Origin: a virus
Taxonomy: Duplodnaviria > Caudoviricetes
Length of the DNA stretch: 64,000 nucleotides
Virus record (IMG/VR): IMGVR_UViG_3300028833_000067
Span: 64,001-128,000 of that record
Strand: one strand, 5' to 3'
Position numbers and translations under genes: made by a program. Shown one piece after another: positions 28,511 through 64,000 of the stretch (position 1 is its first letter; every line of letters starts with the position of its first letter). Under the pieces are notes generated by a model. The model saw only the letters and a program-made list of their open reading frames with translations. It searched no databases and had not been told where the DNA came from.

Positions 28511-30163
28511 ATGAGATAGCATGAGGAAGTTAAGGAATTTGCCGCGAATGATATTATAGAGCTTGTGCGCAAGACGGATTTATCGGATATGAATACGTTT
28601 TTGGTACTCAATGGAGGTACTGGGGTTGGTAAGACTACGGCTATTATGAATAGTGTGCTTGAAGTGCTAGATTAGAAATGCCGCGGGCCGCAAACTATGC
28701 TTGTTGTGGAGAGTAGGAGTATTACGGTGGAGCAGCTGCGGCATAGGTATGGAGAGACAGATGTTTGTTAGAGAATGGGATTCGCAAACATGATAAAGCG
28801 CGGCAATGTTGATTACAATTGGGTTGTGATTGATGAGTGTCATGGGCTGTTTAGTGAGGCTAGCTTTGCGGAAGATACTACTATTATTGGGGAATGGATT
28901 AGGAGCGGCCGCACCTATTAGCATATAATATTTATTACGGCAAATGATGAGTACTTTGAGGAGCTATCGAAGTAGTTTTTTGCGGAAGAGTGTAATTTTA
29001 TTTATTTGTTTCCGGACTTTACTAAGTATGTTAGTAATACGTATGTGAAGGAGATATAGTTTATTAAGACTAGGAATACGAATAGTACGCTTAGTTATTT
29101 TATATAGTAGGAAGAAGGTAAGCGCGGTATTATATTTTTGAAGAGCGCGAGTAAGGTTAAGGATTGGTACTTTCGCTTGATTGATTAGAAGAAATAGGTT
29201 GCGATGCTTGTTTCGCGCGCGAACTAGACATCACTCGCGCTTAGTACTGAATAGGCAAATATTGCGGCGAAAGACTTGCTATTGGATTTAAGCGGCGGCG
29301 AAAGCGGCCTTACACTAGCTGATTTATAGGTGATGGCGGATAAATAGAGAATTGCTGAAGGCAAGGAATCGCTATTTGAAGCATTGGAGAACGAGCACTT
29401 ACCTGATGATATTTCAATTTTAATCGTAACGGATACGCTATAGGAAGGTATGAGTCTCACATTTCCCAAAATTGATTATATGATTATAGATGGGTATGGG
29501 GAAGTGGAAATTAGATAGAAGGTTGGGCGCTTTCGCGGCAACCTTGACTAGCTTTTTATTATATTTAATCCTAATAATGCGATGCGGGATTTTCAAATCC
29601 AATCCGATATGTTTGCGTATTATAGGAAGTTATAGGCAGATGGAGATTAGATTGAGCTGGCGAAGTAGTATGGTTTAATGAAGGGCGCACGCTTTAAGAT
29701 TAGATATATAGTAGAAAGGCAATTTCAAAATGGAACCAAATAGTATGAAGTGAATGAGTAGGCATATTTACACCTCCTGAAAGACCACCGGGACTACTTA
29801 AAGCTAATTTCAAATCCAGAAACCGCTGTATAGGAGATGTATTCATATTTGGGCGCCAGTCCTAAAATGCTAGCCCCCAATGAAGTTCGGATTTCAAATT
29901 AGAAAGACGCACTATTGGAGATTGTGGAAAGGTGGCGCGGCGTTCCCTTAAAGGGCCCCGCCTAGGAAGCATTGATATAGGATTTTGAGAGTATGGATAT
30001 TAGAGATAAGAATTATAGAAAAATAACGTCATTACGAGGATGTACCACATTACTCGCCGAAGCGGGAATTACCGTTGTAGAAAGATAGGCTACACTTAAA
30101 GATGTGGAATAGTGGCCGCAATATCTAAGTAAGGTGAGAGAAAAGTATAGGTGCATCGTTTAA
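28511..30163 (+). CDS. SF2 DExH-box helicase, 550 aa (TAG=Gln); absent from the ORF track
   Basis: GGTGVGKT, VIDECH, FITA, TL(TAG)EG, motif VI (TAG)KVGRFR. About 28 in-frame TAGs and no TAA or TGA. Confidence 0.9.
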
Positions 30164-30384
30164 TATATGGTACTTAGAGGCGCGAGCCTCCTAGGTATAC
30201 TCTTAATTACATCCGGGAGCCGAAAGGCTCCCACTTTTTTATTTGACAATTGGCTCAATTTTTGTTATATTATAATTGATGAAAAATAATAGGATTTAAA
30301 AAAGTTATAATAAAAAATATTTTTTAGAAGAAAATATACAGAGTCTGTCATTCTTATAACACAAATAATATGGAGGTGATAGTG

Positions 30385-30681
30385 ATGGCTCAATTTAATA
30401 ATCAATCAACCGTTAATATTAACAAAACATATGCATGGCTTGATTTTGAAGATACAATAAATGCTTGTCGCACTCTTAATGGCGCCGCATTTAAAGTCTA
30501 TGTATATCTTTCTTCATATACTGGCGGTGAAGTCATTGATTTTTCGCCGCAAGCAGTAGGAGAAGAATTAGGTATTGGCATTTCAACTGCACGCAATGCA
30601 TTTAATGAATTGGCGCGAGAAGGATATCTTGAAAAAATAGCAGATAAAACTTATACTTTTACGGGGCGCCAAAAACTATAA
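30385..30681 (+). CDS. Winged-HTH protein, replication-initiator-like
   Basis: LNGAAFKVYVYL..SPQAVGEELGIGISTARNAFNELAREGYL. Promoter TTGACA at 30243. Confidence 0.7.
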   Translation: MAQFNNQSTVNINKTYAWLDFEDTINACRTLNGAAFKVYVYLSSYTGGEVIDFSPQAVGEELGIGISTARNAFNELAREGYLEKIADKTYTFTGRQKL

Positions 30682-30701
30682 TAACTTTTACAAATTATGC
30701 G

Positions 30702-30856
30702 CAATTTTACAAAACTTGTAGAATTTTACAAAACTTGTAAAAATTTGACAAGTTAGATTAAAAAAATTACAAGTTAGCTACTACAATAATAATAAATAAT
30801 ATATAATAATGTAATAATAATTTAAATAATAATATTTTCGCGCCCGTCGGCGCGGG
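30702..30856. repeat. Iteron-like repeats, AT-rich tract and GC hairpin
   Basis: AATTTTACAAAACTTGTA x2, ACAAGTTAG x2, about 50 bp of almost pure A/T, then CGCGCC/GGCGCG. Confidence 0.7.
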
Positions 30857-30866
30857 AGGAAAATCA

Positions 30867-31518: not shown

Positions 31519-31530
31519 GGTGTATTTATT

Positions 31531-32286
31531 ATGGAAGAAAAGAAATATACAATTTATAAATTTACTTTTTCTGATGGAAAAGTTTATATAGGATAGACAA
31601 GTTAGCCAGTAGAAGATAGATGGAATCACGGTGAAGGTTATAAAGGACAAGAAGTATATGTACCTATTATATTAGATGGGTGGAATAATGTATAGAAAGA
31701 AATCTTACATACGGGATTAACATCTGAATAGGCAGATAAGTTAGAAAAATATTATATTAAAAAATTCAATAGCCAAGTCCAAGGTTACAATAGGACTGAG
31801 GGTGGAAAAAAGGCCACCAAAACTCGAAGTATAACTCCAATCATTAGTTTTGAACGAATGATAGAATTAGAAAAAACTATTATAGAAAAATTACCAATGC
31901 TGATAAGTAATTCTCCTAATAAAATACTAACTTTTAAAGAATTGCGTGAACTGGCAGAAACAAAGCCATTAGAACAAGTAATTTATTAGAGTCATATGCT
32001 AGGTGAAGCGTGCTGGTTAACAACCGCTGAAAAAGCCGCTAATAGTATTGATGTATGCTTAGGAAGTACTGATTCCTATACTCTTGATTATTTAGCACAA
32101 TGGCGTATCTGGAGCGGTAATCCTGATGTTATAACAGCTATTAGCACGCCATGGTTAATATCTACTGATGTAATAGAATATAATAGTTATTTTATTAAAG
32201 ATAAAAAAGTTATACAATTTTATAAAAAATATAACAGATGGCCAAGTACGCAAGATACTGGTTTTAGAGAATCTATTTACAATTAA
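31531..32286 (+). CDS. GIY-YIG endonuclease domain protein (TAG=Gln)
   Basis: IYKFT..GKVYIG(TAG)T..RW..LEKYYI..GYN. Confidence 0.8.
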
Positions 32287-32325
32287 GTATAAAGGTAGTA
32301 TTTCGCTACCATTTCAGGAGGAAAC

Positions 32326-36630: not shown

Positions 36631-37677
36631 ATGACAGAATTATCTTATATTGATGGAATAGATTATAAAGGCCGAAAATATTAGAAAGCTATACCAAAAG
36701 AATGGCAATAGAAACGATATGCTAATAAAAAGTTTGGCAAATTATTTGTAGAATGTCCTGTGTATGTAAAAGGATTAGTTACTTAGCCAGATAGCACCAA
36801 TGCTATCTGGTTAACGCATTGTGATTGCGGAAACGATTATTGTATTAGTATGTAGTGGATTAGAAAAGAATTAAAAAAGAATCTTATTCCAGATTGCGGT
36901 TGTGGTGCACGTGAAGAGTAGGATAAAAAATATATAGGAAAAACTTATAATTATTTAACAGTAATTGCACGTGATGATGAATATAAAAAACAAGGACATT
37001 TTAGTAATACGAATACATATTATAAATGTCGATGTATTTGTGGTAATATAATTCCTGTACGAATTAATATTTTAACACATGGAGATGTGAAGTCATGTGG
37101 CTGCTTAAAAGAACAATAGGATAAGATTAATCTTATCCCTAAAGAAATGAATGATTTAACAGGATAGCGATTTGGACATTTAGTTGCATTATCCCCATTT
37201 AAAAATATTAATTATACAGGTAAAGAATATTGGTGGCATTGTCTTTGTGATTGCGGCAACTATACTGATGTACGAGGAACTTGTTTAACACGAGGAGATA
37301 CACAATCTTGCGGTTGTATAAAGATAAGCCGCGGAGAAGAATAGATTAAATAGTTATTAGAAGCTAATCATATTCATTATATATATAATACAGCATACTT
37401 TAAAGATTTAATTTTGCCTTCAGGATTTTTAGGCCGTTATGATTTTATATTGTTTGATAATAATAATTAGCCTTATCGTTTAATTGAATATGATGGACAA
37501 CAGCATTATTAGCCTATTGAACATTTTGGTGGAGAGGCAGATTTTAAAATTAGATAGCTTAATGATAATATAAAAAATAATTATGCTCATATGCATAATA
37601 TTCCTTTAATACGTATTCCATATACTATAACAGAAATTACTATAGAAACTTTATTAGGAGATAAATATTTAGTTTAA
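36631..37677 (+). CDS. Homing-endonuclease-like protein: three CxCG..SCGC repeats plus a Vsr/DUF559-like nuclease (TAG=Gln)
   Basis: HCDCGN, CICGN..SCGC, DLTG(TAG)RFG, SRGE, RYDF, IEYDGQQHY, IPLIRIPY. Confidence 0.8.
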
Positions 37678-37783: not shown

Positions 37784-39205
37784 ATGGAAGCAATAAAGCA
37801 ACAATTCATTTTACCTGTAACGCCATAGCAGACTGCTGTGAAATCATCAGTATACCCCTGGGAACGTACCAACTTATTTGTCTTATGCTAGCAACTTTAT
37901 TCACTTGCCGCAAAAACAGGATATTTAGGTACATTTGAAGAATTTAAGGCGCATTTTGGTGAATACTTAGAATCGGGCGAATCTATTATAGATTATGATA
38001 CTTATACAGGATAGTATGAAGTAACACCATTGCCTAATGTAGCATCAATTTTACGCACTCATAATAAAGTTCTTAAGCATGACGTAGTTATTCAACCTAT
38101 ACCATATTATGAAACAACAAATGAAGCAGGCGGTTATACCGTCATAATTGGATAAGGAGGAGATTTAAATGGCAAATCTATACAAGAATAAAGTTATTTA
38201 TGGCGGCGATGTACTAATTGACTTAACCTAGGACGATGTAACCGCTGCCGATGTAGCCTCGGGCAAGAAATTTCACTTACCTTCTGGCGCGACCGCAACT
38301 GGTACTAATACTTATGACGCCGATACATCGGATGCAACTGCGGTCGCCGCGGAAATTCTTAGCGACAAAACCGCATATAAAAATGGTACGAAGTTAACAG
38401 GTACTATGCCTAATCGAGGTGCGGTTACTGGCTCTATTACTACTGTTGCAGGTGAATATACAGTACCACAAGGTTATCATGATGGTAGCGGCAAGGTTGC
38501 TATCGCGGCGACAGAGCAGGCAAAACTAATTGCTACAAATATTCGTGAAGGTATTACTGTTTTAGGTGTTACTGGTACTATGAGTGGTAGTGAAGGTGTT
38601 AAAGCCACTGCCGCATCCGTTACTCCATATACTACTGCATAGACAATTACACCTGCGAGTTTAGGTGACTTTAATAGTATTACTCAAATCAATGTTGCCG
38701 CGATTGCTTATACAGAAAGTGATAATGCCGCAGGTGGTGTCACAGTTACAATTGGTACTGTTGCGCCAGCGTGAGGTGGTGAAGCATAATGGCAAATAAT
38801 CCTTATATAAATAAAATAAGTTATGGGGATTAGACCTTAATTGATTTGACTGCTGATACAGTTGCGGCAAACACATTATTAAGTGGATATACCGCGCACG
38901 ACGCTTCGGGCGCAATAGTTACTGGTACTATTTAGGCAAAAACATAGAATGATGTGACTATTGACGGCACTGAGGTTAATGTAATAGCAGGATATTATCC
39001 ATCTGTTAATAAGAATATAGATGGGATTTAGCTAACTGTTCCAGAAAGTAATACACATGATTTTTATATTGATTTTCCAGATACTATTGCGCCCGCGTCT
39101 GCTAGTGATTGGTCGCGTATTGTTTTTAGTGTGGATGATGAAGGGAATTCAACGGTGACGGATAGCTAGATGAATTTAATTGCGGCTGAGGAGGTATCTT
39201 TTTAA
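37784..39205 (+). CDS. Three tail-fibre-associated structural proteins: 37784-38155, 38169-38774, 38789-39205 (TAG=Gln)
   Basis: Strong RBS sites. Shared NKV/I.YG...LIDLT.D.V motif; Thr/Gly/Ala-rich. Confidence 0.7.
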
Positions 39206-41130
39206 TGAATGATATTTATACTTTATAGAAATCCACATTGGATGGATTAGGAGATGCTATGCGTAAGCATTTCGATACAACAGATACCTTTACGCCGCTG
39301 GAAATGATTGAAACATTAAATACGGCAGATACTAGTCTACTTGACATACAATTAAATAATAATTTGCATATTAATCCAACTACTGGAAAATGGGAGCGTC
39401 CCGAAACTTGGCCTGACATAGATGCCCTAGCCGCGGAATGCGATGGAGAAGAAGACTGCTTATATCTTACATATGATTTAACTGTTCACCCTGATTATCA
39501 CTGGATAGGGATATTTGTAAATATGTCAGAAGGAGACACTTGGTATTTAGATAGATATGATGAGGGTGAATTTACTCATACGCATCTATCTGCTTCAAAA
39601 AATGATAGAATAAGGTATGACTTAACTGAGGAACCGGATAATAGTACAGTATAGGTTTGGCGGTTAACTTCTAATGGACATATTAATCATTTTGGTTTTG
39701 TGCCAAATACCACGGTAGAAGCAGAAAACTTTGCCAATAACTTACAGCCCTGTGTTGACCGTGCGGGAATATTGCCTTGGTGTGTACGGGTAGGTCCTGC
39801 TGATAATTTCAGTGGCTATAGAGGTCCAAATAGCTATATTGGCACAACATTCTGGCTAGAACATGACGCCTTAACATTCGGAACAAAAGCAAGTGTTACT
39901 AGTTTACGCAATTTTTGGCTTGAAGCGAGACGGTTAGCCGTAATAGATACAAGTAATTGGAATACAAGTGGCTGGGCAGTTACAAGTTTAAATTCTACAT
40001 GGAAATCTTGTACTTCTTTAATAGAATTAGAATTAAATAATTTAGATACAAGTAATTGGGAAGTAAATAATATGGCGAATGCTTGGTCGGAATGTTTATC
40101 GCTACGACAATTGGATTTGAGTAATTGGAATACTTCCAACTGGTCTGTAGCGAATCTTTAGAGTACTTGGTTTCGCTGTTATAGCCTAAAAGAATTAGAT
40201 ATTAGTACTTGGGATACTTCGAATTGGGCGGTTACAACGATACAGGACTGCTGGAATTTCTGTTATAATTTAGAAAAATTAGATTTAAATAATTGGGATA
40301 CTTCCAATTGGCGAGTGTCAACATTAAATAGTACTTGGAATTAGTGTTATAGTTTAAAAAAATTAAATATAGACAACTGGAATGTTAGCAATTGGCCGAT
40401 AACTACCTTATCCTCGACTTGGAATGGTTGTCGATCGTTAAAACAACTAAATTTAAATAAATGGGATACTTCAAATTGGAAATTAACATCTCTACAGAAT
40501 GCTTGGTAGGAATGTTATAGTTTAAAACAATTAGACATTGATGAATGGAATACCGGGAATTGGCTACTAACTACTTTGTCAGGTACTTGGAGATATTGTT
40601 ATAGTTTATAGAAATTAGATTTAAATAGTTGGGATACTAGTAATTGGTCATTAACATCATTATATTCGACTTGGCAAGGTTGTTATTCATTACAAGAATT
40701 AAATATTAATGAATGGAATACACAAAATTGGGAAATACACGATATGCGTAATATAATTAATAGCTGTTATAATTTAAAAATCTTTGATATCGAAGACTGG
40801 GATATAACAAATTGGAGTAATATTAATTTTCAAAGTGCTTTCGAGAACACATGGGTGCTATAGATTTGTCGACTTCCATTAGGACTCCCAGTAACTTCTA
40901 ACTTTGGATATCCTAACGGTATGGCATTAATATATTATTCAGGATATGGTATTAATATTAATCATAATCTTTCGAGTACTAAATTAACAGCTGAATCCAT
41001 CCGATCTATTTTCAGCCGCTTACCAACCATCTCTAACTCATTAACAATTACTCTCGGCGCGGAAAATCTTCTCAAAGTAACCGCAGAAGACATCGCAGTT
41101 GCAACTAACAAAGGCTGGACAGTAGCATAA
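39205..41130 (+). CDS. 641-aa protein with about 10 tandem 28-aa BspA/DUF285-like leucine-rich repeats (TAG=Gln)
   Basis: Repeat L..LD/NL..WDTSNW.V..L..TW..CYS. One frame joins track ORFs 39238, 39700 and 40921. Confidence 0.8.
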
Positions 41131-41144
41131 GGAAGGTGATTTAA

Positions 41145-42596
41145 ATGGCAGATATAAATTTTGGCGTAAACCTAGTCCCTAAATTAGACAGTCTTTACAC
41201 ACTAGGAAACGCAAATTATAAATGGAATATATTCGCTAACTCTATTAATGGCACTTCAATTGCCAATGCCCTTCTACCTTCTGTTACTTCTAATAACAAT
41301 GGACAAATTCTAAAGGTTGATAACGGTGCTTGGACCGTAGGCGAAGCGCCCACCTCGCTTCCTGCTATTTCCGTACTAGACAACAATAGTATCTTATAGG
41401 TATAGAATGGCGGATGGGTTGTTGCGCCATTGAACGAAATGACTGGAGCTACTAGTTCTGCGAATGGAGAAGTTGGCTTAGTACCAGCACCAAATATGGG
41501 AGATTAGAATAAATATTTAAAAGCAGATGGAACTTGGGATACCAATGTAGTGTTTTTAGATTATAATGTAAGTACGTGGAATGATTTTCTTACCGCATAT
41601 AATGCAGGAAAAAGCATTTATTGTAAAGTACAAAACACTACTAATGAATGGAGAATTGTACCACTTACATATATTGATTTAAATGACGGAAATGCAGAAT
41701 TTAACTATTATAGATCAAGAGATATAACTAGTGGATATGCGCCAGATGAAGTACATGTATATAAACTTATGCGAAATAGTAATGCATGGGATACAACTGT
41801 TAGACTTATTAACTTTTCACTTGCGACTACCTCAGCACCAGGGTTACTAGAAGCGGCAGACAAAACTAAATTAAATAAAATTGATATTAGCAATAATCAT
41901 TTCTCTGTTCGTGGCGATATATATATGGAATGTGATGCTGAATTCCTTAATGGACAAAAAGTAGCTAGCGAAAATTATGTTGACACCGCTGTATCAAATG
42001 CTGTTATTTCAAGTGGTAGCGGAGTATCTACTCCAATGGTTGGTGCTTCTGCAAGTCTAGATGGCGCGACGGGTCTTGTTCCAGCACCACAAGCGGGAGA
42101 TTAGGATAAATTCCTCGCTGGTGATGGTACTTTTAAATCTGGTGGATTACCTATGGTTATTTTAAGTTATGGAAATTCTACTTGGAGTGATTTTATTAAT
42201 GCTTATAATAATAATGTTATTGTATATTGCCGCGCTTCATCTAATAGTAATCCCGCGAGCGGTAGTTAGACACGTATGGCATTTATGGCGTATGTAAATA
42301 ATGCATCTTCTCCGACAGAAGTAGAATTTCAATACTATCGTTCTGTTAGCTCGCATAGTGCTACGCAAATGGGCGACCAAGTATTTGTTTATAAATTAAA
42401 TAATAAAGGTACTTGGAGCGTTACGACTCGTGAAGCAAGTATTAAACAAATTAAAGTTGATAGTAACGATCCGGGCACTGTATCTTGGAGCGGTAATGTT
42501 GTTACTCTTAAAAGTGGTCTTCCCAAGGTTTCATCTGCGGATGAAGGAAAAATATTAAAGGTAGTAAATGGCGTCTGGACCGCCGTTGATCCATAA
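41145..42596 (+). CDS. Tail-fibre-like protein, 483 aa (TAG=Gln)
   Basis: LP.V....G.ILKV.NG.W and GLVPAP..GD(TAG).K repeats; internally duplicated domain. Confidence 0.75.
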
Positions 42597-44882: not shown

Positions 44883-44959
44883 ATACATCACCTCATTGTA
44901 TAAGTATTTGACTTATATTAAAATTATGGTATAATTTTGTTATAGAAAGGAATGAGATT

Positions 44960-45711: not shown

Positions 45712-45843
45712 TGCGGCTTGAGGCCGTATTTTTTTTATTACTAGAATTAAAAAGTATTATTGTTTGCTTTTAAATATACTAAACTGTTAGAAAGAGTTTT
45801 ATACTCTTTAACTTTGAAATTTGAGAAAAAGGAGGTAAAAGGT

Positions 45844-51800: not shown

Positions 51801-54800
51801 CACTAAGGCTAACCCATATCAAAAGGTATTCCTTACCCGCCAAGAAACTCGTTTCTTACGTGATATGATGCAAGGCCGTAAGAAATATCAACGTCGTCAA
51901 TGGTGTAAAGATCAAGATGTTTACTTTGGTAGTAAATATTTACTTCCAAATGTATTCGCTGATCTATTTGAGTTCTCTTGTTATAATCCTGGCGGCATGG
52001 CTGTAACACCGAACTGGGATTTAACAATTACTCCATATCAGGATATGTACATTAATATATCCTATGCTGAAACGTTTGCCCGTCCTTTCCGTGCAAAAGC
52101 TGGTAAAACATATGAGTTTAAATCTATCTTAAATGATATGAATGATTCTCGTATTCGTATTTATGGTGCAAATCATATTCAAGCTCTAGCAGGTAAAGCA
52201 ATCCGTGATGCGGAAACGGGTGAAATTATCGGTGCTGAAGGTCTTGCTTCTTTCTACATGAAGGCAAACAACTTCCAGCATACACATAAATTACGTAAGT
52301 TAATCATTGGTACTCCTAACACTGCTTATGAAAATGGTAACTTTACTACACTTAATATTACAGATGACAACCCAATCCTTGAAGTTTTAGATATCTAGAA
52401 TTGCAATAACTTAGGTGGTCAACTTCCTTTAAGTAAGAGCACTTCTATTCAAAGAATTGAAGCACAAGGTACACAGATTACCTCTGTTAACTTACCTCCT
52501 AACACTGGTATACAAGTACTCCACTTACCAGAAACAATTAATAACATTACTCTATACTCTGCAAAGAGCCTACAAGAAATCACCTTAAAAGAGCGTGATG
52601 GAACAGTTAATACTTCTAATCTAACTACCTTATTAGTTAATGACAGTGACTACTCTTCAGTAAACGGTGAACTGCCAACCGTTAATTGGATGAAACTCGC
52701 GGCAAGTGCCTTGAGTCATATATCTAGCTTACAGTTAATTGGTTTAAGATCCGCTTACATTGGAAACATTTCTGACTTAGAACCTTTTGCTATGCGTAAG
52801 AATCAGTTAGGTACTACCACTAATGAAGCTGGTGACGAAATCTACAGAGTGTGGTTAAGTGGTCAAATCGCAGTTACTGGCGCATGGTCACAAATTGAGA
52901 TAGATGATTATCAGTCTATCTGGCCCATAACTTTTACAACAATTCCCGCTAAGGAGCAATAGAAAGTTAAAGTAACTTATATGGAGAGCGCGCATTGGGA
53001 AGGAAATACTTGGGTAGAAGCACAACAAATAGGCGACTCTATATATGTTGCAGCAACTGGTAAAGATAGCGATCGCACTATCCCCGATATTTATTATGGT
53101 TAGCAGCTTAGCGATTTACCAACTAGACCTTCTACTATTGATGAAGTATTCTCTTTTGGTGAAATTTTAGATGGACAATATTTAATGTATTCTGGCTGGT
53201 CTAAAACTCAAGGGCCTAATGCTGTTCCATTGAATAGTTTAAATGGCGGCAACTATGGTATTAATAATTTATATAGAGCTACTTCAAATGATGTTGAAAC
53301 AGGAATTACATTATATACTTATTATAAAGCATCAGCACATAAGTATACTGTAAGATGGTATTTAGATGATAATACTATAGTTAAATCCATGAGTAATCAA
53401 GATGCACATGGTGGATATACTCTAGAAGCTCCTACTGTTAAAGAAATGAGAACAGGTGTTGTTGATTATTCTAATAAATTAGCTTCATATTCCTTTAAAG
53501 ACGATACAGTAACTTATAAAATTTTTGATGGATGGGAGAAACTTCCTACTGATATTAGTCCAACATTAAAAGAATCAGATACTAGTATATATCGTATTGA
53601 TGCTAAATGGTATGAGGAGACTAAGTCGCTAACTGGAGAAAATGGTCTATTTAAAGATACATCTAATCTTACATTAGATTAGCTATATATCTTATCTCAT
53701 ATGGATAGCTCAATGAAAAATAGTTTTACAGATAGTAAGCAAATTACTATTAATTAGAAATTTAGTTATACAATGGGATATGATGGATTAAAAGATGGTT
53801 TGGTATTTGCTAATAATAAAAACTTTATTAATAGCCCAGCTACTCTCATTGCCGGTGAATATGCTACTGTTAATGGACAACGTATTGCTCCTTTCTCTAA
53901 TAATGATGGCTTTACTATTGCAATAGATTATCAATTTGATAAAAATTAGAATTTAAATTCTAAAGCCGCAGTATTAGTAGGCTGTTATAATAAAAATGAA
54001 GGAAATATTACTGGTTTTGCACTTTATCGAAATGGTGCTTCAACTGGTGAAGTACGTATAGGATATGGAGATTTTATTAATGACAGTAATAAATCTAAAG
54101 TTATTAATAATAGTGGTGCACGAAATATTGTTGTTATACGTCATCCAAAAGGATCATCAATACTATATATTTACTCCAGCGCAGCAAAGAATGATATTAC
54201 TGCTATTAATTTACCAAACGTAGAATCAATTGATGTCAATACACAATTAATTGATAACAATGCATTTATTTGTTTAGGGAATTTACGTACTGATATTAGT
54301 GGCGATTCTGCTCTTTCTGATAATCCTTCTTATACTAATGAAATTAATAATGCCGGTAATGCATACGGAACTATTTATTGGGCAAAATATTGGCCAGAAG
54401 ACTTGGGTGCTGGTGAATGTAAACAACTAGCTGCGTGGCCGCATGAATCTATGACTTCTATGATTGCCGCGATAGGTTCTAATCAAACAACTCTTCCAAA
54501 CATTTATTTAAGCAATCTAAATGCTTCTCAGCATGCTTCAGTATAGCCACGAACATTAGGGAATACTACAGCAGAGCTTGGATGGGGTAATTCTGGAATT
54601 AAGTAGATTTGTGATAATCGTATTTTTGCTGGTTTACCAATAAGAATGCAATCTATTATAGGTAAGATTAATATTGGTTATTATAATTCATATGTTACTC
54701 TTGATGAATATAATGCGCCAAGTTATGGTATAAATAATAATCTATTAACTGATGGGGCCTTTGTATATGTTCCTTCTATTAGTAGCTTAACATCTAGTAT

Positions 54801-55422
54801 GAATACATATAATAAGGAATCAATAGTTGAACGTACTGGAAATTCTAGCAATGATACCAGTGATATTACTCCTTATCCATGGTTAAATACTCCAATATAG
54901 ATTTATGATTGGAATATAAATACAGAAACGCATTGGGTAAAATCAGATATGGTTAGTAACTCTAATTATCTTAATATTCGATTCGCAAATAAATCTTTAT
55001 TATCTTTAGGAAAAGATAATAATTTAAGAATTTTCTGTATTAATGCTCCTAATCCCACTTTAATTAATGGTAGAATATATGATGAAATTAATTCTAATAT
55101 TACTGATGGTATAAAAACAAATGATATTGTCATATTAAATAATATTGCTTATTTGTATATAAGTAGTACTGATTATACTCCTTATGTCATGGATATTGTT
55201 AGTTCCAATACTGACTCTAGACTTAATACAAATGGTAATGGTGGATGGATTAAAAGTATAGCTTATCCAACTCGTTCAGTTTCTTATGGTAACCAATAGA
55301 GCAATTTTATTTATATTAAATAGGATGGTAATATGGTGGTTCCAAGTAGTGGAAGCGATTAGGCATATAATCAAAGTAGCTTTGATAGTAAGCTAAATTT
55401 AACTTATGCATACACAATTTAA
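45844..55422 (+). CDS. Giant 3192-aa virion/tail-associated protein with a CotH-kinase-like domain (TAG=Gln)
   Basis: AGGAGG RBS. All track fragments (46798, 47350, 50803, 52690, 53185, 54646, 54949) share one frame and end in TAG. Contains an N-terminal coiled coil, a CBM-like VYKCLEAHTS motif, and MMDNRAKN..YDCDTAIG. Confidence 0.85.
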
Positions 55423-55473
55423 CGTTAAATGGAGGCGGCTATTTTTAGCCGCCTCCTTCTTGGAGGTAATAAC

Positions 55474-56211
55474 ATGAAATATTTTAAAATCATAAAAGAT
55501 AACACTATTATTGGTGCAGTTACTTCTTAGAGCTTTGTACGTTATTAGCCTGAAACTGGTAGTTTTACTAGAGCAACAGAAGAAAATGGAGAATATTTAG
55601 CTTATAACGGTTATTTTTATAGGGCTACTTGGATGGTACCAATGATTAAAACAATATCTCATATTGATGCATTAATACTTGCTATTAGTGAAGAAGAATA
55701 TAATATTTATATGGATGCTATTTCTAATCATGAACAGTTGCCTGATGAAGAAGTTATTCCTATAGAACCTGATGAGCCAACTCCAGTTGATCCAATAGAA
55801 CAATTATCTATAGATTTTATTCGCTCTTCTAAATTAAAAGAACTGTCTATAGCTTGCCGCCGCGCCATTGAAAATGGAATTGATCTTACTATTCGTGGTG
55901 AAACTAAACATTTTTCACTAACAGCGCAAGACCAACTTAATCTAATGGATCTTAAAACTCTAGTTGAAACTGAAGACTTCATTCCTTATCATGCTGATAA
56001 TGAAGAACAAATGTTCTATACCGCAGCAGAAATAAAACAAATTATTGCCGCAGCATCTGCGCATAAAATTTATCAAACAACTTATCATAATTCTTTAAAA
56101 ACATATGTAAATAGTTTAGAGACAATAGAAGAAATATCTGCTATTACATATGGAATTTCTATTCCAGAAGAATATAAGACTGAGGTACTAAAAACCCTTA
56201 AAACTGAATAA
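55474..56211 (+). CDS. Tail-fibre assembly-like protein (DUF4376-like C-terminus; TAG=Gln)
   Basis: KLKELS..C..AIENG..HFSLTAQDQLNL..YHAD; follows the giant gene. Confidence 0.65.
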
Positions 56212-56225: not shown

Positions 56226-56585
56226 ATGGCGAATAAAATTGCTGCTGTAGCATTATAGTATAGCAAGTGGCTTAGTCGTTTTATTTGTTGGATTTGGGCT
56301 ATTTATCGTTTTGCGACCTTAATTGGTTCAATAATTCGGCCCGAAGCCGCGGAAGCTTTAGCTTCAACTCTATATAATTTAGATTGGATTATGCTAGTTA
56401 ATGAGGGTACTTATTTAGTTAATAGTCTTGGGGAAAAATATCTTTATAGCGATAAGTTTATTCTTAGATGGCTAGATAAAGGCGGCCTAAAAAATATGAT
56501 TGGACGTGTAACTTCATTGCGGCATGAACCTAAAGAAGATGAACAAGTGTATGAAGAAGAAGAAGAAGGTGAGGAAAATGGCTGA
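56226..56585 (+). CDS. Membrane protein next to the endolysin (TAG=Gln)
   Basis: Hydrophobic N-terminal half and acidic tail. Confidence 0.6.
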
Positions 56586-57378
56586 TATAAAACCATCTGC
56601 ATTAATTGCTAAATTTTAGTATGCCCTAGATAATAAATGGGGCTATATTTTAGGACAATGGCATGCATAGTGGACACAAGCATTGTAGAATTAGAAAATT
56701 AATTATATAAAAAGTAAATATGGAGATGGCTGGAAAACCAGCTCTAGCGCCAAGAGAGATAAATATTATTATGCCGCTCTTTACGGCGCAAAATGGATCG
56801 GCCATTGGGTCACAGATTGCTCTGGTTTATTTTACTGGGCTTTTAAAGAACTTGGTGGGTATATGTACCATGGTTCTAATACAATGTGGAATAAATATTG
56901 CGTGGCTAAAGGTAAATTATCTGGCGGAAAACGTACTGATGGCAATGAATTAAAGCCGGGAACCGCAGTATTTGTTCTCAAGGGAACTTCTGATCGTTCT
57001 CATGTGGGCTTATATATTGGCGGCGGTAAAGTTATTGAAGCTTCTGGTACATAGGCCGGTGTTTGTTATAGTAATGTGAGCGATAAAAAATGGGCAGAAT
57101 GGGGAGAATTAAAAGGAGTTGATTATAAGAGTATAAACTCAGAAGTTGAACCTACTCCTAGTACTCCATTAACACCAATAGAGCCCGGCCCTATAACTAT
57201 AGGTTCTGCACTAGTTAATGCTACCAGAGTTGCTTTACGTTCTGCTCCTTCTACCAGCGCAACAATTCTTACTCGCGTAGATAAAGGCGAGAGAGTATAG
57301 GTATTAGATGATGAATGGACTCGAGTTTCCTATCAAGGGAAAACTGGATATATGATGAGTAAATTTTTAACTCGATAA
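56578..57378 (+). CDS. NlpC/P60 cell-wall hydrolase with SH3b domain (endolysin), 6 TAG=Gln
   Basis: DCSGL catalytic Cys, HVGLYIG His, C-terminal LRSAPST..GYMMSKFL. Confidence 0.85.
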
Positions 57379-57499
57379 AATAGTGGGCAATTAAAGCCCA
57401 CTATTTTTTTATATCTTAAAATAAATAGTAATATTTTTCTCTTCTCCTATTACCTTAAAATAGGGAAATATCCTTAAATTTGTTAAAGGAAGTGATAAT

Positions 57500-59544
57500 A
57501 TGGCATATAAAATGACAAAAAGAGGATCATTAGATAATGAAACCACTAATGAATTTTTCTGTGATACTGCCAGTGATTTAAATAAAATTCCGGCTTCAGA
57601 AATTAATCTTGGGTCTGTTGCTGTTATAGTTGATACTATGGAAGTCTATATTGCAAATAGTAATAAATAGTGGATTAGTATGACTCCCACTAGTGACGAG
57701 GAGAGTGAACCATAATGGATATAATTGATATTATGCTCGCGCGTGCTATGACACCGCAAGGGAAGACCGAAACATATGTAGCAAAGGCCAATGCTGCCGC
57801 AGCAAAAGCAGAAAAAGCAGAACAAGATGCAGCAACTGCAATTAGTACTGTTGAGGCGGCCGCAGATGAGATAGCTACCGCACGCGAGGAAGCCGCGGCA
57901 TTATTAGAAGAAGCGCAAAATACTTTAGAAACCGCTCAGCAAGCGCAAATTAATTTCCCTGAATCCTATAATACAACAGGACAAAATACAGATGGTTATA
58001 TGACTCAGAAAGCAGTAACCGACGCTTTAAATGATAAAGTTAGTATAACTAATTTTAATGTTGCTTTATCTCAAAAAGCAGATACTGCCACTACCGTAAC
58101 TAAATAGTATGTTGATAGTGCTATTGCTTCAATTTCTAGTGGCAGTACAGTTATAGGAGGCGGCGGAAACACTAATCTTGGAAGTGAAAACGCCGGTTAT
58201 TTAGTCGTTGTTGGCGAAGATGGAAATATTAAACCTGGCGATGTAGATGAAATGACTTTAATTAGTTCTTTAATTAATAGTGGTACTTATGTCGCACGAG
58301 AAGCAGTTGGACTAGAAATAGACTATGCCGGTAAAGCAGTTTCTCGTATTCAAGAAGCGGTTGGCCTTAATATGGGTACTGATTTTAATAACTATATTAT
58401 GTATGGCGGCCGTATGCGCTGTAATGTTGCTGATGACGGCACAATAACTGCTTTCTATGGAGACGCAAATTATAAAGAAGATGGATCGAATGGATAGGTT
58501 ATGGTTTATTAGCCAAAATTCTATTATCAAAGAATTCCATTAAATGTACAAGATATTGCTAATGGCCGCGCAGTACGTCATGAGACATTAATTCTTAGCG
58601 CGAAAAAACAAACCGGGTTTAAGCTTCATCCAATTTTTAGTGATGGCAATGGCGGAGAACTTGATTATATATTATTCTCTGCCTATAATGGTAGTTTAGT
58701 TGATAATAAATTAGCGTCTATTGCAAATGTTAAGCCTGCCGCGAATATGAATATTACTCAGGCAGAAACATATGCTATTGCTCGCGGAAATGGCTGGCAT
58801 ATTAATAACATGGCCGCGGTTAGTGCTAATTAGATGCTATAGGTTGTAGAATATGGTAGTATGAATGGATAGGCATCTTTTGAAGATGGTATATCCAATT
58901 TATCTAAAATTACTCCTAATATTAATTGTAGCGCAATTACTGGTTCTACCGCCGCACTTGGTAATGAGAGCGGGCATGCGGAATCTACCATTAATGATAA
59001 TAATGGAGTCGAAGTAACAAACACTCAAGCAGGAGAACGTGCTATTAGTTATCGTGGATTAGAGAATCCTTGGGGCAATTTATGGAATTACATTGGTGGA
59101 TGTAATATTTATGGAGATGGTACTCGTTTTGGTGGTTCTCCATATATTTGTATTGACTTTAATTATACTCCAAGTACCATTGGCGATAATTATGAATATA
59201 TTGGCTTTAATCTACCAAATGCTTATGGTTGGATTAGCGCAATGGGCTGTACTAATTAGAAATATGACTGGATATTTATGCCTATTGAATGTTCTAATAC
59301 TGCGAATAGTTTATTACCAGTAGGCGATAATTTATGGACAGTAGCCAATGTAGATGTAATGAAGACAGCGGCAGTAGGCGGTTCATATTCTTTTAAAGAT
59401 AATAATGGATTATTCTATTATGCTTGTGATAATAATGTAACACGCTCTGCTTCTAATTTTGGCGCCCGTCTAATGTATATTCCAACTAAAAATACAACTT
59501 ATACAGCTAATATAAATAAATGGAAAAATAAAATAGGAGAGTGA
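57500..59544 (+). CDS. 71-aa protein (57500-57715) and 609-aa tail/receptor-binding-like protein (57715-59544), TAG=Gln
   Basis: YRGLENPWGN and C-terminal VGGSY..GLFY..FGARL, as in C-type-lectin-fold phage proteins. Confidence 0.7.
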
Positions 59545-59549
59545 TAGCT

Positions 59550-60199
59550 ATGCGAGAGTATAAAAATATAAGTAGCTCAATAGAACCTAGTGAAATAGAG
59601 TTTACTCCCAATGCTGTTTACATAGCAAAAAATATTACTCCTTATGAAGAAAATTTAGGTGACCGTGTTATTAGTGGATACAAGTATGATTGTACAGAAT
59701 ATAGTAAAGATGAATATATGATTTATTAGAATGAAAAGATAAAATCATTAGAGGATGAATTAAAGGCCGCAAAAATCTTACTAGGAGTTGATTAATTATG
59801 ACATTATTAGACTTAGCAAGAAAACTTCGCCCTTTTATAGAGAAAGCGGCTATATCTTTATCTGATGAAGACGCGCTGGAGGCAGTTAATTTATTTCCTA
59901 ATTGGCATGAGGGTATAGCCTATGAAAAGGATGCCCGAGTAAAATATGAAGAAATATTATATAAATGCCTTCAAGCGCATACTTCATAGAGTGGGTGGAC
60001 TCCTATCGCCGCTCCAAGTTTATGGGCGAAAGTATTAATTCCTGATGAAAATGTTATTCCTGAATGGGAGTAGCCAGATAGTACTAATCCTTATATGAAA
60101 GGAGACAAAGTATTATTTAATAATATAGTATACGAAAGTACAATAGACAATAATATATGGTCACCCGCGGACTATCCGGGAGGATGGCACGCACTTTAA
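59550..60199 (+). CDS. Hypothetical protein 59550-59795 and carbohydrate-binding-module-like protein 59798-60199 (TAG=Gln)
   Basis: LYKCLQAHTS(TAG)SGWTP..SLW, WE(TAG)P..Y.KGDKV. Confidence 0.7.
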
Positions 60200-60254
60200 T
60201 ATTTGACAAATTATTATTCAATATGATATAATAAAAGAAAAAGGAGGTAATGGT

Positions 60255-60593
60255 ATGAACATTACTCAAATTTTACTTGGGATTATTATTTTAATTGGCG
60301 GTGCTATTAGTTTATTTGTAATTCCTTATCTTAAGGCGCATATGACAACAGAGTAGATTGGAATTTTAACTGGTATTGCACAAACTGTAGTATATGCCGC
60401 AGAAAAGATTTTTGGCGCGAAGATGGGCGCAGACAAATTAGCTTATGCTCTAAGAGTGGCTAAAGAATTACTTGCAAAAAAGGGATTATCTTTTGATGAA
60501 GATATAATTCGTGCAGCAATTGAAGCGCAAGTACAACAATTAACTTTAGAAAAAACTACTGTAGAGAATGCAATTGAGGCTAAGAAAGACTAA
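60255..60593 (+). CDS. LL-H-like holin (one TAG=Gln)
   Basis: N-terminal transmembrane segment, V.AAE..G..K, IRAAIEAQV. Preceded by TTGACA (60203)-17-TATAAT. Confidence 0.75.
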
Positions 60594-60874
60594 TGAAAGC
60601 TTCTGTAAAAACAGCTAATAAAGGCGCTTTAAATTTACGTGCTGCACCTTCCTCTTCTGCAAAAATACTTGCACAAATTCCTTATGGGACAGAATTGGAA
60701 GTTTCAACTCTATCGACAGAATGGGTTCCTGTTACTTATGAAAGTGGAACTGGATATGTAATGAGTAAATTTTTAAGTGAATTACAAGATTCAACAGCTA
60801 CAAAAGCTAGTTTAAAAAAAGTCTATGATGAGCTATCTATAGCTCTAAAAATGATAGAAGACATTTTAAAGTGA
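60593..60874 (+). CDS. Stand-alone SH3b-domain protein
   Basis: LNLRAAPS..IPYG..W..V.Y..GYVMSKFL. Confidence 0.8.
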   Translation: MKASVKTANKGALNLRAAPSSSAKILAQIPYGTELEVSTLSTEWVPVTYESGTGYVMSKFLSELQDSTATKASLKKVYDELSIALKMIEDILK

Positions 60875-61044
60875 GGTTACTTTAATGGAAGAACAACTAT
60901 TTGATGAAATTGGATGTTTTTATTGTTATGATAATAAGCATTAGAAAGAAAAGAAACCATTATGGTTTATGGATGCCGCAAATAATTTAAAAGTATGCGA
61001 TTATTGCCCTAAGTGCGGGCGAAAATATGGGGAGGTGCCAATGA

Positions 61045-62284
61045 ATGAATAGTTGGAATCAGCCATAGATGTAGAATAATATGACAATGGGACAAGCGCA
61101 ATTTAATCCATATAGTTCTTGGAACTTCCCTAATCCTTAGCCAAGAACTTTTAATTAGCCTTTACCTACTTATCGCGCTGACCCAATTCATGGAGAAAAT
61201 GCCGCGTGGCAATTTCCTATGGGGCCGAATAGTGAGATTTATTTACCAGATAGCGATAAGGATATCATTTGGTGGATTAGAACTGATCAAAATAATAATA
61301 GATCAGTAATGCCTTTTGATGTTAAACCGCATCAAGAGCCAGCTCCTGTTGATACTAATGATTTAGCCGCAAGGTTAGCAGCTGTGGAGGAATGGATAAA
61401 TGGCAAGTAGAATAAGTCAAATGCGAAACGGAATGCAGCAAATGCCGCAGAACAACAATCTGCAAGTGGAAGCAACGCGTAATTTAATGCAGTAGCTAAA
61501 AACCGCAACTAATTAGCAAGCAATGTTAAATTAGATTTTACAAGGAAATCCAGCAATTGCAAATTTAGTACGTAGCGGCGGAAGTTTAGAGGCATATGCA
61601 AGATAGATGGCCGCAAGCAAAGGTATAGATATTAATTGGTTATTAAAACAATTGCAAGGAGGAATGTAATATGAATACTATTATTTTTAATAATGAAAAC
61701 AGTTTTCAAGTAGAAAGTTATAGTAAGACCACAAATTTTGATGGTGTTAATATATATAGCAATGCTACTGCAACATTATTAGGTTATGGAACAGATGTAA
61801 ATGCTTTAAACGGTATGCTAAATTAGACTATTACTTCTATTAAAATTGTTTCTAATGGTAATACAATTTATGAAATCACTGATCTTAATGCTGAAATTAA
61901 CTCCATTACTGAGTATCTTAGCGGTGATCATATGAGTATCAATTTAAATATGATATTTAAGTGAGGTAATGATATATGAAAATCATTTCCGAGATTTGTG
62001 ATAAAATTGAATGTGAACTTAAATAGGCAGAAAAATATATAGATTGCGCTATTTACGTACAATAGGATTATCCTTAGTTAGCAGAAATTTATTATAAATT
62101 AAGCGATTAGCGCATGAAAGATTAGAGTATGCTACATGACTAGGTTGTAGCTATAATAAATGAATATAAAAAATCTAATGGTGAGCCACCTGAAACTATG
62201 AAATTTCTTTATGAATACCTTCATAAAAAATTTATTGACTGGGCTGCATAGATTAAAATTAAACAAAATTTATATAAGACCTAA
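61045..62284 (+). CDS. Hypothetical cluster: 61045-61482 and 61400-61669 (Gln/Asn-rich), 61671-61964, 61976-62284 (helical), TAG=Gln
   Basis: Frames are open to TAA/TGA only with readthrough, and the TAGs fall within Gln-rich stretches. Confidence 0.65.
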
Positions 62285-62321
62285 TATTTGACAATGAGAA
62301 ATAGAATATGTTATAATAATA

Positions 62322-62407
62322 AGGTGGTATTGAACTGCAGCTTCGCGCCAGTTTTATACTGCAACAATGAGGGGCCACCTTTTGATAAGGGCCCCTTATT
62401 TTTTTTA
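62322..62407 (+). ncRNA. Candidate small structured RNA or leader
   Basis: TTGACA (62288)-17-TATAAT, then AAGGTGG/CCACCTT, ATTG/CAAT and TGCAG/CTGCA stems, then an ATAAGGGG/CCCCTTAT inverted repeat with a T-tract. Confidence 0.4.
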
Positions 62408-62421
62408 TGGAGGTGAGGTAA

Positions 62422-64000
62422 GTGACAGCAGGTAATTTCAACTTAACCTCTTATTATGCTAAAAGGATTATAGGTGATACGGCCGCGGCGAGTTAGAGTA
62501 GTGCGCTATTGTAGACTGGAACAAATATTGCAACAGATACATGGATCTTACATAGAACGAATAGGAGTGAGTTGTATGGTATAAAGTATTATTATGATAC
62601 AACTGAAACTGATAATGTAAATAATGGACATGATAGGATTGAATTGTATGGCGGGTAGCAAGATGATCAAGAACATTATATATCAAGTATTTGGGCATAG
62701 TTAGATACTGGTGATACTTATATATTAGGAAAAGTTGGGATTGGATATGATCCAACTACTGACGGAAATACATATAAATTGTATGTAAATGGTAATTCTT
62801 ATTTTACTGACCATATGTATATAGGAAGAAATGATAGCGCACATATATATTTAATAAATAAAAATTGGACTAAAGGAACGAATCCTAGTTCATAGACATA
62901 TTCTGCTATAGAATATAATGATGTAAATAATAGTCGTGTTGCTTTATTAGAGACTACTTTAGATATATCTGGAAATAGTCGTTTTAATATTTATTTAGTT
63001 CCAAATGTCGAAAATAGTACAAGTTGGAGCGGTATTGTTTTATAGAAAACAAATGATAATGTTTTGACTGTAAATATTGCAGGAACTACAACTGTTAGTG
63101 GAACTATACATGCTAATGGTGGTTATTTAAAATCTACTTTAAATAGTAATACTGTATAGATTGGTTCGCAAAATTCTAGTTTTTGTCATATTACTAATAG
63201 TGCAAATATTCCTTTTTGGTTTAATAAAACTATATAGATAGATGGTAATTTAGTATTATATCAGAAAAATACATCATTAGAACCAGGATATTTGCATCTG
63301 GGTGGAACTACTGATGCAACTATGACTTCCGCTTCAACTAATCCTAGAATTTGCTTTTCAGAGGGCGCGAGCGCCCAACCTGTATACTTGATATATACGG
63401 ATGCGGATTCCTATCGTGCCCCGGCTGGATTAAAAGTGATTGGAGGGACAAGCGCTACTCCTGCTTGGTTTGAAGTTGAAGGAGATATACATGCTGGAGG
63501 AAACTTAATATTCGCAAATAGTGGTACGGCTTTCCGCGGTATCAATTATGGAACTATGGGTGACAATGATCAATGGCGTATAGGTGGGGCAGCAACTGCA
63601 TCTAATGCTGGATATATGGAATTAGCAACTGCTGACGATGGAAATGAACCTATATATGTTAGACAATACACAGGAGTATTTACTACTTTAAAAAGAACAT
63701 TGACATTATTAGATGCTAATGGGAATACAACTTTTCCTGGTAGTTTATATTTAAACAATCGAGGCACAAATATAATTTATAATGGCCCGAATGATGCCGT
63801 AAATGGTGTTGGTGGCGCATTAAATAATTTAGTATTTAGTTCTTGGTATGGTGTATCATTCACTACATCTTGTACTGGACAAACTTATACAGGTACCAAT
63901 GCTGTGTCTATTAACTGCAGAAATGGTAATGTATATGCAGCACATTTTAATGGCCCACTTACAGGTAATGTAACAGGAAATTGTAGTGGTTCTTCGGGCA
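62422..64000 (+). CDS. Tail-fibre-like protein (runs off window; TAG=Gln)
   Basis: GGAGGTGAGG RBS with GTG start. Gly/Asn/Thr-rich beta repeats and GNVTGN. Confidence 0.7.

Follow-up and report, generated by a model that had tools for sequence, protein, structure and literature searches.

TAG as a probable glutamine codon in an SPbeta-like phage of the sheep rumen, with a split tRNA(CUA) as its candidate decoder

The stretch of DNA analyzed here, referred to as the window, comprises bases 64001-128000 (64,000 nucleotides) of a single 176,887-bp virus contig from IMG/VR (IMGVR_UViG_3300028833_000067), which is linear and estimated to be 98% complete. Near-identical DNA is present in sheep-gut (rumen) metagenomes and metatranscriptomes. 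A first-pass annotation had reported that long frames between 28511 and 64000 are broken only by TAG and had read this codon as glutamine (Gln, Q). We consider it very probable, from sequence comparison, that the phage uses genetic code 15, in which TAG is an ordinary Gln codon and genes end in TAA or TGA, and that it decodes TAG with a transfer RNA (tRNA) of its own bearing the anticodon CUA, tRNA(CUA).

Genes and reading frames of the window

The features of the window are listed below. Positions are those of the window unless marked as genome positions; aa stands for amino acids, ORF for open reading frame and GC3 for the G+C content at third codon positions.

1..1149, minus strand, running on past the window start (genome 63365-65149): TerL of the YonF/SPbeta type, 594 aa, 5 TAG (phrog_2, phrog_9)
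1142..2092, minus strand: 316-aa protein with 6 in-frame TAG (phrog_3314, function unknown)
2055..3356, minus strand: 433-aa protein with 11 in-frame TAG, with a weak sigma-factor-like family match and a C-terminal zinc-finger or endonuclease-like domain
3591..27200, no strand assigned: TAG-poor array of short gene cassettes headed by promoters, readable in either code (TAG/Gln 0.01, GC3 about 0.45, CAG preferred)
27211..28499, plus strand: four small overlapping ORFs that open the recoded block, with 5, 3, 2 and 1 in-frame TAG; the last two, co-oriented, overlap the start of the helicase
27741..27836, plus strand: two sigma-70-type promoter matches, one of 12/12 with an extended -10 and one of 11/12 (matches to the consensus, with a putative function)
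28496..30163, plus strand: superfamily 2 (SF2) helicase (Pfam DEAD and Helicase_C), 555 aa, 28 in-frame TAG
30215..30232, plus strand: GC-rich hairpin and T-run resembling an intrinsic terminator, closing the helicase operon
31531..32286, plus strand: GIY-YIG endonuclease, 251 aa, 5 TAG including that of KVYIG*TS (Pfam PF01541, E 9e-8; the asterisk stands for TAG)
36631..37677, plus strand: HNH or homing-type endonuclease, 348 aa, 12 TAG (phrog_374, phrog_559)
38169..39205, plus strand: two phrog_13589 ORFs, 201 aa with 2 TAG and 138 aa with 5 TAG; in the second all Gln codons are TAG
39205..42596, plus strand: two large ORFs of unknown function (leucine-rich-repeat-like; phrog_4302), 641 aa with 7 TAG and 483 aa with 5 TAG
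44238..44891, minus strand: SpoIID-like peptidoglycan lytic enzyme, 217 aa (Pfam SpoIID E 1e-18; PDB 4rwr E 1e-25, and 5i1t)
45760..55422, plus strand: giant tail-module ORF, 3220 aa, 21 TAG
55429..56211, plus strand: tail-fibre-like protein (DUF4376; phrog_1348), 2 TAG
56524..57378, plus strand: NlpC/P60 endopeptidase with SH3_3 wall-binding domain, a candidate endolysin or tail lysin, 6 TAG (67% of its Gln codons; Pfam, PHROGs)
57715..59544, plus strand: tail protein (phrog_5302), 609 aa, 7 TAG
59798..60199, plus strand: CBM_5_12 carbohydrate-binding protein, 2 TAG
60203..60874, plus strand: lysis cassette, in the order promoter match, holin, SH3_3 protein
60203-60232, plus strand: sigma-70-type promoter match of 12/12 ahead of the holin
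60255-60593, plus strand: holin (Phage_holin_6_1), one TAG at codon 34, within the domain
60593-60874, plus strand: SH3_3 protein, TAG-free
62288-62317, plus strand: promoter match of 12/12 ahead of the tail-fibre gene 62422
62422..64000, plus strand, running on to window coordinate 64908: tail-fibre protein, 828 aa, 10 TAG

Under the standard code (code 11), a greedy ORF cover of 28511-64000 consists of 58 ORFs with a median length of 87 aa and covers a fraction of 0.61. Once TAG is treated as a sense codon, as in the comparison of codes 11 and 15 that the first-pass annotation had proposed, 45 ORFs cover 0.92, with frames of 3220, 641, 609, 555 and 483 codons. The cover is 0.65 with TGA as sense and 0.83 with TAA as sense, and a shuffled-sequence control gave 0.15 and 0.38. 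The long frames interrupted by TAG alone are found where they had been described, for example in the helicase, the HNH endonuclease, the 3220-aa ORF and the tail protein. Recoding had also been claimed for 1-3356, and here the minus-strand ORFs carry 4, 6 and 11 TAG and the cover rises from 56% to 82%, while that of the TAG-poor block 3357-27200 barely moves (80% to 83%). Over the whole genome the cover rises from 65% to 92%, and in the chosen genes, all of 150 aa or longer, 499 in-frame TAG and not a single in-frame TAA or TGA were counted. The recoded block begins at about 27211 (27.2 kb), about 1.3 kb ahead of the earlier start at 28511.

TAG hardly ever serves as a terminator in this genome: 154 ORFs end in TAA and 61 in TGA, there is no excess of TAG near ORF ends, and the TAG-free modules hold at most one or two plausible TAG-terminated genes. 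The base following TAG is distributed as after any sense codon, with no special downstream context.

TAG is unevenly spread among the genes listed above. Within the window, TerL carries four TAGs, at 1-3, 472, 952 and 994. The helicase has the highest load of the genome, with TAG making up 5% of its codons and 80% of its Gln codons and the first TAG at codon 8. It lies in what looks like a self-contained cassette (27741-30232) of two promoter matches, three overlapping ORFs and a terminator hairpin. In the SpoIID-like gene all four Gln codons are TAG, with no CAA and no CAG. The 3220-aa ORF is a mosaic: aa 1-512 and 2400-3220 are TAG-rich and CAG-poor (GC3 0.14-0.23), and the center (aa 520-2400) has only 2 TAG, more CAG and a GC3 of 0.23-0.29. 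This center looks, from its codon usage, as if it had been acquired from, or were exchanging with, standard-code phages. The gene order of the lysis cassette is repeated in relatives.

By tblastn, TerL is 30-36% identical to the YonF-type terminases found in SPbeta-like phages of Bacillota and to that of phAss-1. The search matched 124 records, mainly Bacillus, Lactococcus and Enterococcus phages, and the matches include Geobacillus E3, Enterococcus H1, Bacillus FADO and phAss-1. Atlas language-model feature scores, which serve as leads, place the major capsid protein in the YonB family (0.99) and the tail-tube protein in the YomU family (0.98). A Pfam search of the TerL, portal-position, capsid and tube proteins gave no match. 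By homology, the phage is an SPbeta-like siphophage from the sheep rumen with phAss-1 as its nearest recoded relative. Genome size and endonucleases had pointed to a crAss-like affiliation, which we abandoned in view of the findings on TerL, capsid and tube.

Residue encoded by TAG

To avoid circularity, we limited the key claims to proteins verified to translate by table 11, NCBI proteins or sequences of cultured phages; the database translations of the homologues P0001, P0002, P0238, P0260, P0323 and P0348 already read TAG as Q.

Among 112 homologues of the helicase, the columns at aa 92, 316, 341 and 385, read from pairwise BLAST, hold Q in 9-11 of the 11 full-length homologues. This set includes P0003, P0004 and P0012, whose DNA was verified to translate by table 11. 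P0003 and P0004 have Q at 9 and 10 of the 28 helicase TAG columns, as compared with about 1.5 expected. The first-pass annotation had placed a TAG at the Gln of helicase motif VI (Q-x-x-G-R), and indeed the TAG at 29516-29518 is codon 341, in EIR-X-KVGR, a column occupied by Q in 63 of 63 cases. Its assignment of TAGs to Gln positions of the SpoIID-like enzyme agrees equally with structures: all three alignable TAGs fall on Q in both PDB 4rwr and 5i1t, namely the Q of KAQA(L/S)AART, the next conserved Q and the Q of G(M)SQ(Y/W)G. The TAG at 44730-44732 (minus strand) is codon 54 of this gene, in KA-X-AVAART, and the motif GLS*AG was located in its translation.

The remaining alignments point to the same residue. 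For the HNH endonuclease (5335 homologues), 85 homologues and four of four NCBI proteins have Q at the TAG column aa 309. Four TAG columns of the tail protein (aa 261, 266, 373 and 386) hold Q in 118-120 of 120 homologues, as well as in four NCBI proteins and in the cultured Clostridium phage CS266P3. The TerL TAGs at aa 66 and aa 383 (window 1-3) align with Q in all four of Geobacillus E3, Enterococcus H1, Bacillus FADO and phAss-1. The first of these is the "terminase PFQ" of the first-pass annotation; the motif exists, as LMPF*RVEL, and its TAG aligns with Gln, but its place is window 950-952, within 1-3356 and outside the interval 28511-64000 to which it had been assigned. The motif KVYIG*TS of the GIY-YIG protein is likewise present. 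To our knowledge, however, the Q of YIGQT is not an invariant position of that family, and a PDB search with this protein gave no usable alignment. Conserved TAG columns therefore hold Q, and not the random residues that would have spoken against the assignment.

Codetta-style log-odds over 47 TAG columns gave Gln as the sole positive residue (+57.9 bits), followed by Lys (-4.4) and Glu (-7.9), with Ser at -29.8, Leu at -37.9 and Tyr at -52.4. Between orthologues, TAG is exchanged for CAA or CAG, and either of these for TAG. One relative, IMGVR_UViG_3300021387_000046 (189,572 bp; G001 below), has a tail-protein orthologue with 8 in-frame TAG in which TAG is swapped with CAA or CAG. Metagenomic homologues of this tail protein (57715-59544) number in the thousands, on contigs of 150-190 kb, and four of four sampled long relatives are TAG-recoded (translated 'with_TAG=Q').

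Codon usage, for which no homology was used, shows where TAG came from. CAG accounts for 0.31% of codons in TAG-rich genes vs. 1.86% in TAG-free genes, while CAA is about level (1.95% vs. 1.51%); TAG itself makes up 2.11% of codons in TAG-rich genes. Because CAG drops where TAG is used and CAA holds, TAG has displaced CAG, from which it differs by a single C-to-T transition. The reading of TAG as Gln is thus supported by four independent lines of comparative evidence: standard-code homologues, log-odds, codon swaps between orthologues and CAG depletion.

A split tRNA(CUA) outside the window

A tRNA search of the window found none, and no Rfam family scored above threshold in it. The first-pass annotation had likewise seen neither a suppressor tRNA nor a release factor there. 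The tRNA cluster of the genome, at 142-153.7 kb, has no CUA anticodon among its members. With introns allowed, ARAGORN located a tRNA(CUA) at genome 140729-140991 (window coordinate 76729-76991), 12.7 kb past the window end and the only CUA tRNA found in the genome. Its acceptor stem pairs perfectly over 7 bp, its T-arm reads GTTGG/TTCGATT/CCAAC, and U1-A72, G73 and an encoded CCA are present; a 175-nucleotide (nt) insert splits it between U35 and A36, inside the anticodon. ARAGORN labels it 'Pyl', which stems solely from the CUA anticodon.

The insert matches the Rfam group I intron model (RF00028) end to end with 36.5 bits (E = 1.5e-7 in 0.9 kb, 7e-9 genome-wide), the sole such match in the genome. 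The 5' exon ends in U, which could pair with the intron sequence GGAG, and the last intron base is G, giving the junction CUCU|...G|AAAA. G001 carries the same tRNA(CUA) uninterrupted, with identical exons joined exactly at the predicted CUCU|AAAA. The insertion is therefore precise, with a U before the 5' splice site, a terminal G and a known intron-less allele, as in a group I intron. The one split tRNA(CUA), of which a relative carries an intact identical allele, is thus a putatively functional CUA suppressor.

U1-A72 and G73 mark tRNA-Gln in the literature on Escherichia coli glutaminyl-tRNA synthetase (GlnRS) and GatCAB. The phage's own tRNA-Gln(UUG) shares these features and the T-stem with tRNA(CUA). 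The genome-wide search for tRNA-CUA, GlnRS or release factor 2 (RF2) that the first-pass annotation had called for was successful only for the tRNA: searches for release factors (PF00472) and for GlnRS or glutamyl-tRNA synthetase (PF00749) gave no match in the 98%-complete genome, with control genomes giving matches. Since no phage GlnRS was found, a host enzyme would have to charge tRNA(CUA) with Gln.

Among 50,697 phage records, the only annotated look-alike is a 'tRNA-Gln' with a CUA anticodon in the crAss-like phage cr113_1 (NC_055896), which shares the anticodon arm and the unusual long variable region (GACGGTCTCTAAAACCGTG..GGCCTCTGAAGC). This suppressor family (L007:1423-1507; cr113_1 L019:127-217) spans the SPbeta-like clade and a crAss-like phage, with differing acceptor, D and T stems.

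The unit that contains the suppressor is TAG-free and consists of a host-type promoter match (genome 140252-140280), a cow-rumen-4 leader and a 116-aa ORF, followed by the tRNA. In both phages, this one and G001, Rfam cow-rumen-4 is a leader that includes the Shine-Dalgarno sequence of the small ORF upstream of the suppressor (L001:1285-1351; L007:963-1030). Another Rfam element, cow-rumen-3, lies 6 nt downstream of the intact suppressor of G001 (L007:1512-1656); in this genome it is 5.4 kb away and has a 45-nt deletion (L001:7366-7460).

As a check on splicing, DNA and metatranscriptome contigs of two sheep-rumen samples were aligned to the suppressor region. A junction skipping exactly 175 nt (1761 to 1937 of L001) was present in RNA runs and in both DNA runs, and the RNA contig with this skip carries other joints typical of a relative. 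We therefore rejected the skip as evidence of splicing and ascribe it to an intron-less allele in the community. Metatranscriptome contigs at L001:2001-2200 and 3001-3600 (genome 141.0-141.2 and 142.0-142.6 kb) reach summed depths of 400-2800, as compared with 5-30 over the neighboring tail gene, which hints at highly abundant small RNAs in this tRNA-bearing region, contig depth being a rough guide. Two tRNAs with weak D-arms, tRNA-Met(CAU) at genome 142861-142933 and tRNA-Ala(UGC) at 151896-151966, were missed by default ARAGORN and found by Infernal.

Distribution of TAG and competing explanations

TAG is used unevenly along the genome. The TAG/Gln ratio is 0.04 in the core replication module (genome 0-22.9 kb; topoisomerase II, Sak4, DnaB, primase, RecJ and DNA polymerase), 0.42 in the head, packaging and tape-measure block, 0.01 in the promoter-cassette array (window 3.6-27 kb), 0.37 in the block from helicase to tail fibre (window 27.2 kb onward) and 0.15 in the right arm. 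The genes for topoisomerase II, DnaB, primase, RecJ and DNA polymerase are TAG-free. The first-pass annotation had named replication, packaging, tail and lysis genes as recoded. This holds for packaging (TerL), tail genes and the lysis candidates (holin, NlpC/P60 and SpoIID), but in replication it applies to the accessory SF2 helicase only; we regard this helicase as accessory because it was looked for and not found in G001. Across relatives its TAG count varies (28, 19, 9, 0).

The genes for the major capsid protein (genome 58762-59871, minus strand) and the tail tube (genome 53956-54957, minus strand) contain no TAG, have CAG:CAA counts of 13:1 and 10:0 and prefer AAG. They lie inside the TAG-rich virion block to the left of the window (L011:18762-19871 and L011:13956-14957), where their neighbors show the opposite codon style. 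Four further genes share the CAG-only style: an AAA_5 ATPase at window 17375-18358 and the genes at genome 5782-6684, 156857-158380 and 162694-163911. Several small TAG-free genes are also scattered within the recoded block.

Under the mechanism that we favor, the 175-nt group-I-like intron would first be removed from the transcript of genome 140729-140991, as the anticodon exists only afterwards, and a host enzyme would charge the mature tRNA(CUA) with Gln. TAG-free genes would be translated at once by host ribosomes, and genes with TAG would give stubs until the suppressor outcompetes release factor 1 (RF1). The genes expected to yield stubs are those for the helicase (from codon 8), holin (from codon 34), NlpC/P60, SpoIID, TerL, tape measure and tail fibres. 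A gate of this kind on late and lysis genes, which the first-pass annotation had cited as a proposal for gut phages, fits TAG/Gln ratios of at most 0.04 in the replication core and cassette array, the TAG-free suppressor unit and the TAGs in holin, NlpC/P60, SpoIID, TerL and tail genes. The genes for capsid and tail tube run counter to it, being late but TAG-free; because these two are TAG-free and CAG-based, a simple rule that late genes are gated fails. Avoidance of TAG by capsid YonB and tube YomU, the two proteins most abundant in the virion, suggests that suppression may be costly or slow; the pattern is also compatible with avoidance of a costly codon in mass-produced proteins.

Several points weigh against code 15 with a phage-borne decoder. 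The case for the code is a comparative one throughout, and the raw Q tallies are partly circular, since many database homologues were translated with TAG=Q. The 36.5 bits of the intron lie below the Rfam gathering threshold of 50 bits, and the 175-nt skip, occurring in DNA as well as in RNA contigs, reflects intron-less relatives. The variable region of tRNA(CUA) has 19 nt without an obvious stem, which is odd for a tRNA-Gln and more typical of Ser, Leu, Tyr or Sec tRNAs; the intron-less allele scores best as tRNA-Sec in Rfam (34 bits), and the cr113_1 tRNA lacks U1-A72 and G73. The route by which Gln would be charged hinges on the identity of the host.

The strongest competing explanation accepts the recoding and dispenses with a purpose-built timer: AT-biased C-to-T drift would turn CAG into TAG, selection would purge TAG from highly or early expressed genes, and the early/late pattern would be a by-product. 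We see this as a real possibility, if somewhat short of an even chance, and consider an adaptive gate and drift under AT pressure with purifying selection to be about equally likely. Drift accounts well for the specific replacement of CAG with CAA unchanged, for the late capsid and tube genes with their CAG and mostly AAG codons, for the rapid shifts of TAG density among helicase orthologues, for the mosaic of the 3220-aa ORF and for the small TAG-free genes in the recoded block. It is less at ease with the promoters: the sigma-70-type matches of 12/12 precede the helicase operon, the holin and the tail-fibre gene 62422, so that the TAG-densest gene and a tail-fibre gene stand behind consensus host-type promoters, where a translational lock would make sense. 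The holin and two wall hydrolases all bear TAG, and the suppressor's own unit is TAG-free, like the 'code change modules' of bioRxiv 10.1101/2021.08.26.457843. A more elaborate form of the gate, which we think rather unlikely, is a two-key lock in which the TAG-dense helicase operon, tail fibre and holin would be transcribed early from host-type promoters and their translation locked until the self-spliced suppressor accumulates, with capsid and tube deliberately outside the lock; the splicing rate of the intron would then set the clock of a genetic-code change.

The other alternatives concern the decoding itself. The host might read TAG, through its own code 15 or a natural suppressor, with the split phage tRNA as a dead relic. 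The sub-threshold intron, with splicing only predicted, would suit this view, as would surveys that report recoded phages without a detectable suppressor (PMC7886860, PMC12386605). Yet about 45 kb, the replication core and the cassette array, strictly avoid in-frame TAG, which would be pointless if the host read it as Gln, and the exons share 100% identity with the uninterrupted allele in the recoded relative, with a perfect cloverleaf, T-loop and CCA kept. We know of no bacterium in which TAG encodes Gln, which we also count against decoding by the host, and regard it as improbable. Still less credible is a decoding as Ser, Leu, Tyr or pyrrolysine, which the type II or Sec-like look of the suppressor might suggest: Ser, Leu and Tyr have strongly negative log-odds as compared with Gln, all conserved TAG columns are Q, and CAG depletion mirrors the gain of TAG. 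The idea that the TAGs are true stops, in fragmented pseudogenes or assembly errors, draws on nothing but the appearance under code 11 and can be practically dismissed, as neither TAA nor TGA interrupts frames as long as 3220 codons, DNA contigs of independent runs match the sequence, and TAGs are conserved or exchanged with CAA or CAG in orthologues from independent samples, which refutes it.

Code 15 decoded by a phage tRNA(CUA), the reading that we prefer, has ample precedent. The literature already covers TAG-to-Gln recoding, its preference for structural and lysis genes, the suppressor tRNAs of phages and the repeated failure to detect them (10.1101/2021.08.26.457843; PMC7886860; PMC6784885; PMC10607447; PMC12386605), and the NCBI taxonomy includes a 'Caudoviricetes code 15 clade'. 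Like the code-15 phages of gut and rumen (Lak megaphages, crAss-like phages and the clades in bioRxiv 10.1101/2021.08.26.457843; PMC6784885, PMC7886860), this phage has its in-frame TAGs at positions of Gln, mainly in genes for structure and lysis, and its early and replication genes can be read in the standard code; it too carries a tRNA(CUA) of its own and retains TAA and TGA as stops. It differs from them in its SPbeta-like structural module, in the group-I-like intron that splits its suppressor and in its TAG-free capsid and tail-tube genes, structural genes being usually described as recoded; unlike Lak phages, it has no RF2.

The phage phAss-1 (136 kb, human gut, three intact tRNA-Sup(CTA) genes; PMC10607447, GenBank OQ749652) is likewise a large siphophage with a very long tape measure, TAG-to-Gln recoding in TerL, portal, tape-measure and tail-fibre genes, no phage aminoacyl-tRNA synthetase and a predicted Clostridia host. 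The two TerL proteins are homologous (34% identity), with Q or TAG at the same columns. The relationship is nevertheless distant, and the present phage is larger (177 kb), comes from the sheep rumen and has one split tRNA. With SPbeta-like phages (Bacillus SPbeta, FADO, Geobacillus E3, Enterococcus H1) it shares the gene order TerL, portal, capsid, tube, tape measure; these cultured relatives, in contrast, use the standard code, with no stops in their TerL or tail matches.

Group I introns are known in bacterial tRNA anticodon loops, namely in cyanobacterial and plastid tRNA-Leu(UAA), tRNA-fMet and Azoarcus tRNA-Ile. The insert described here resembles them in its anticodon-loop site, in a 5' exon U that would pair with the guide GGAG as a U-G wobble, in its terminal G and in having no intron ORF. 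It is unlike them in its length of only 175 nt, its sub-threshold Rfam score and its position between nucleotides 35 and 36 of a phage stop-codon suppressor, with self-splicing being a prediction.

The phage is a solid new example of a documented recoding, the phenomenon itself being established, and it brings into the code-15 phages an SPbeta-like member whose host is probably one of the Bacillota. What it refines is the block start at about 27.2 kb, the TAG-free replication core, capsid and tube, the replacement of CAG, the promoters before TAG-dense genes and the hidden suppressor. It offers a clean internal picture of how TAG spreads, with CAG replaced and capsid, tube and early genes spared. 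Standard tRNA finders overlook the suppressor; this may account for some of the published cases in which a recoded phage seemed to have no suppressor tRNA. Code 11 badly misannotates this genome and its many 150-190-kb rumen relatives, as seen from the 58 short ORFs in place of 45 real ones in 28511-64000.

Gene calling under code 15 calls for a caution of its own. Treating TAG as sense yields a 226-aa antisense ORF at 34357-35037 (minus strand; 6 TAG, GC3 0.53) that is longer than the TAG-free ORF at 34309-34851 (plus strand) which it overlies. Because of such spurious antisense ORFs, the greedy gene list slightly overcounts genes with TAG.

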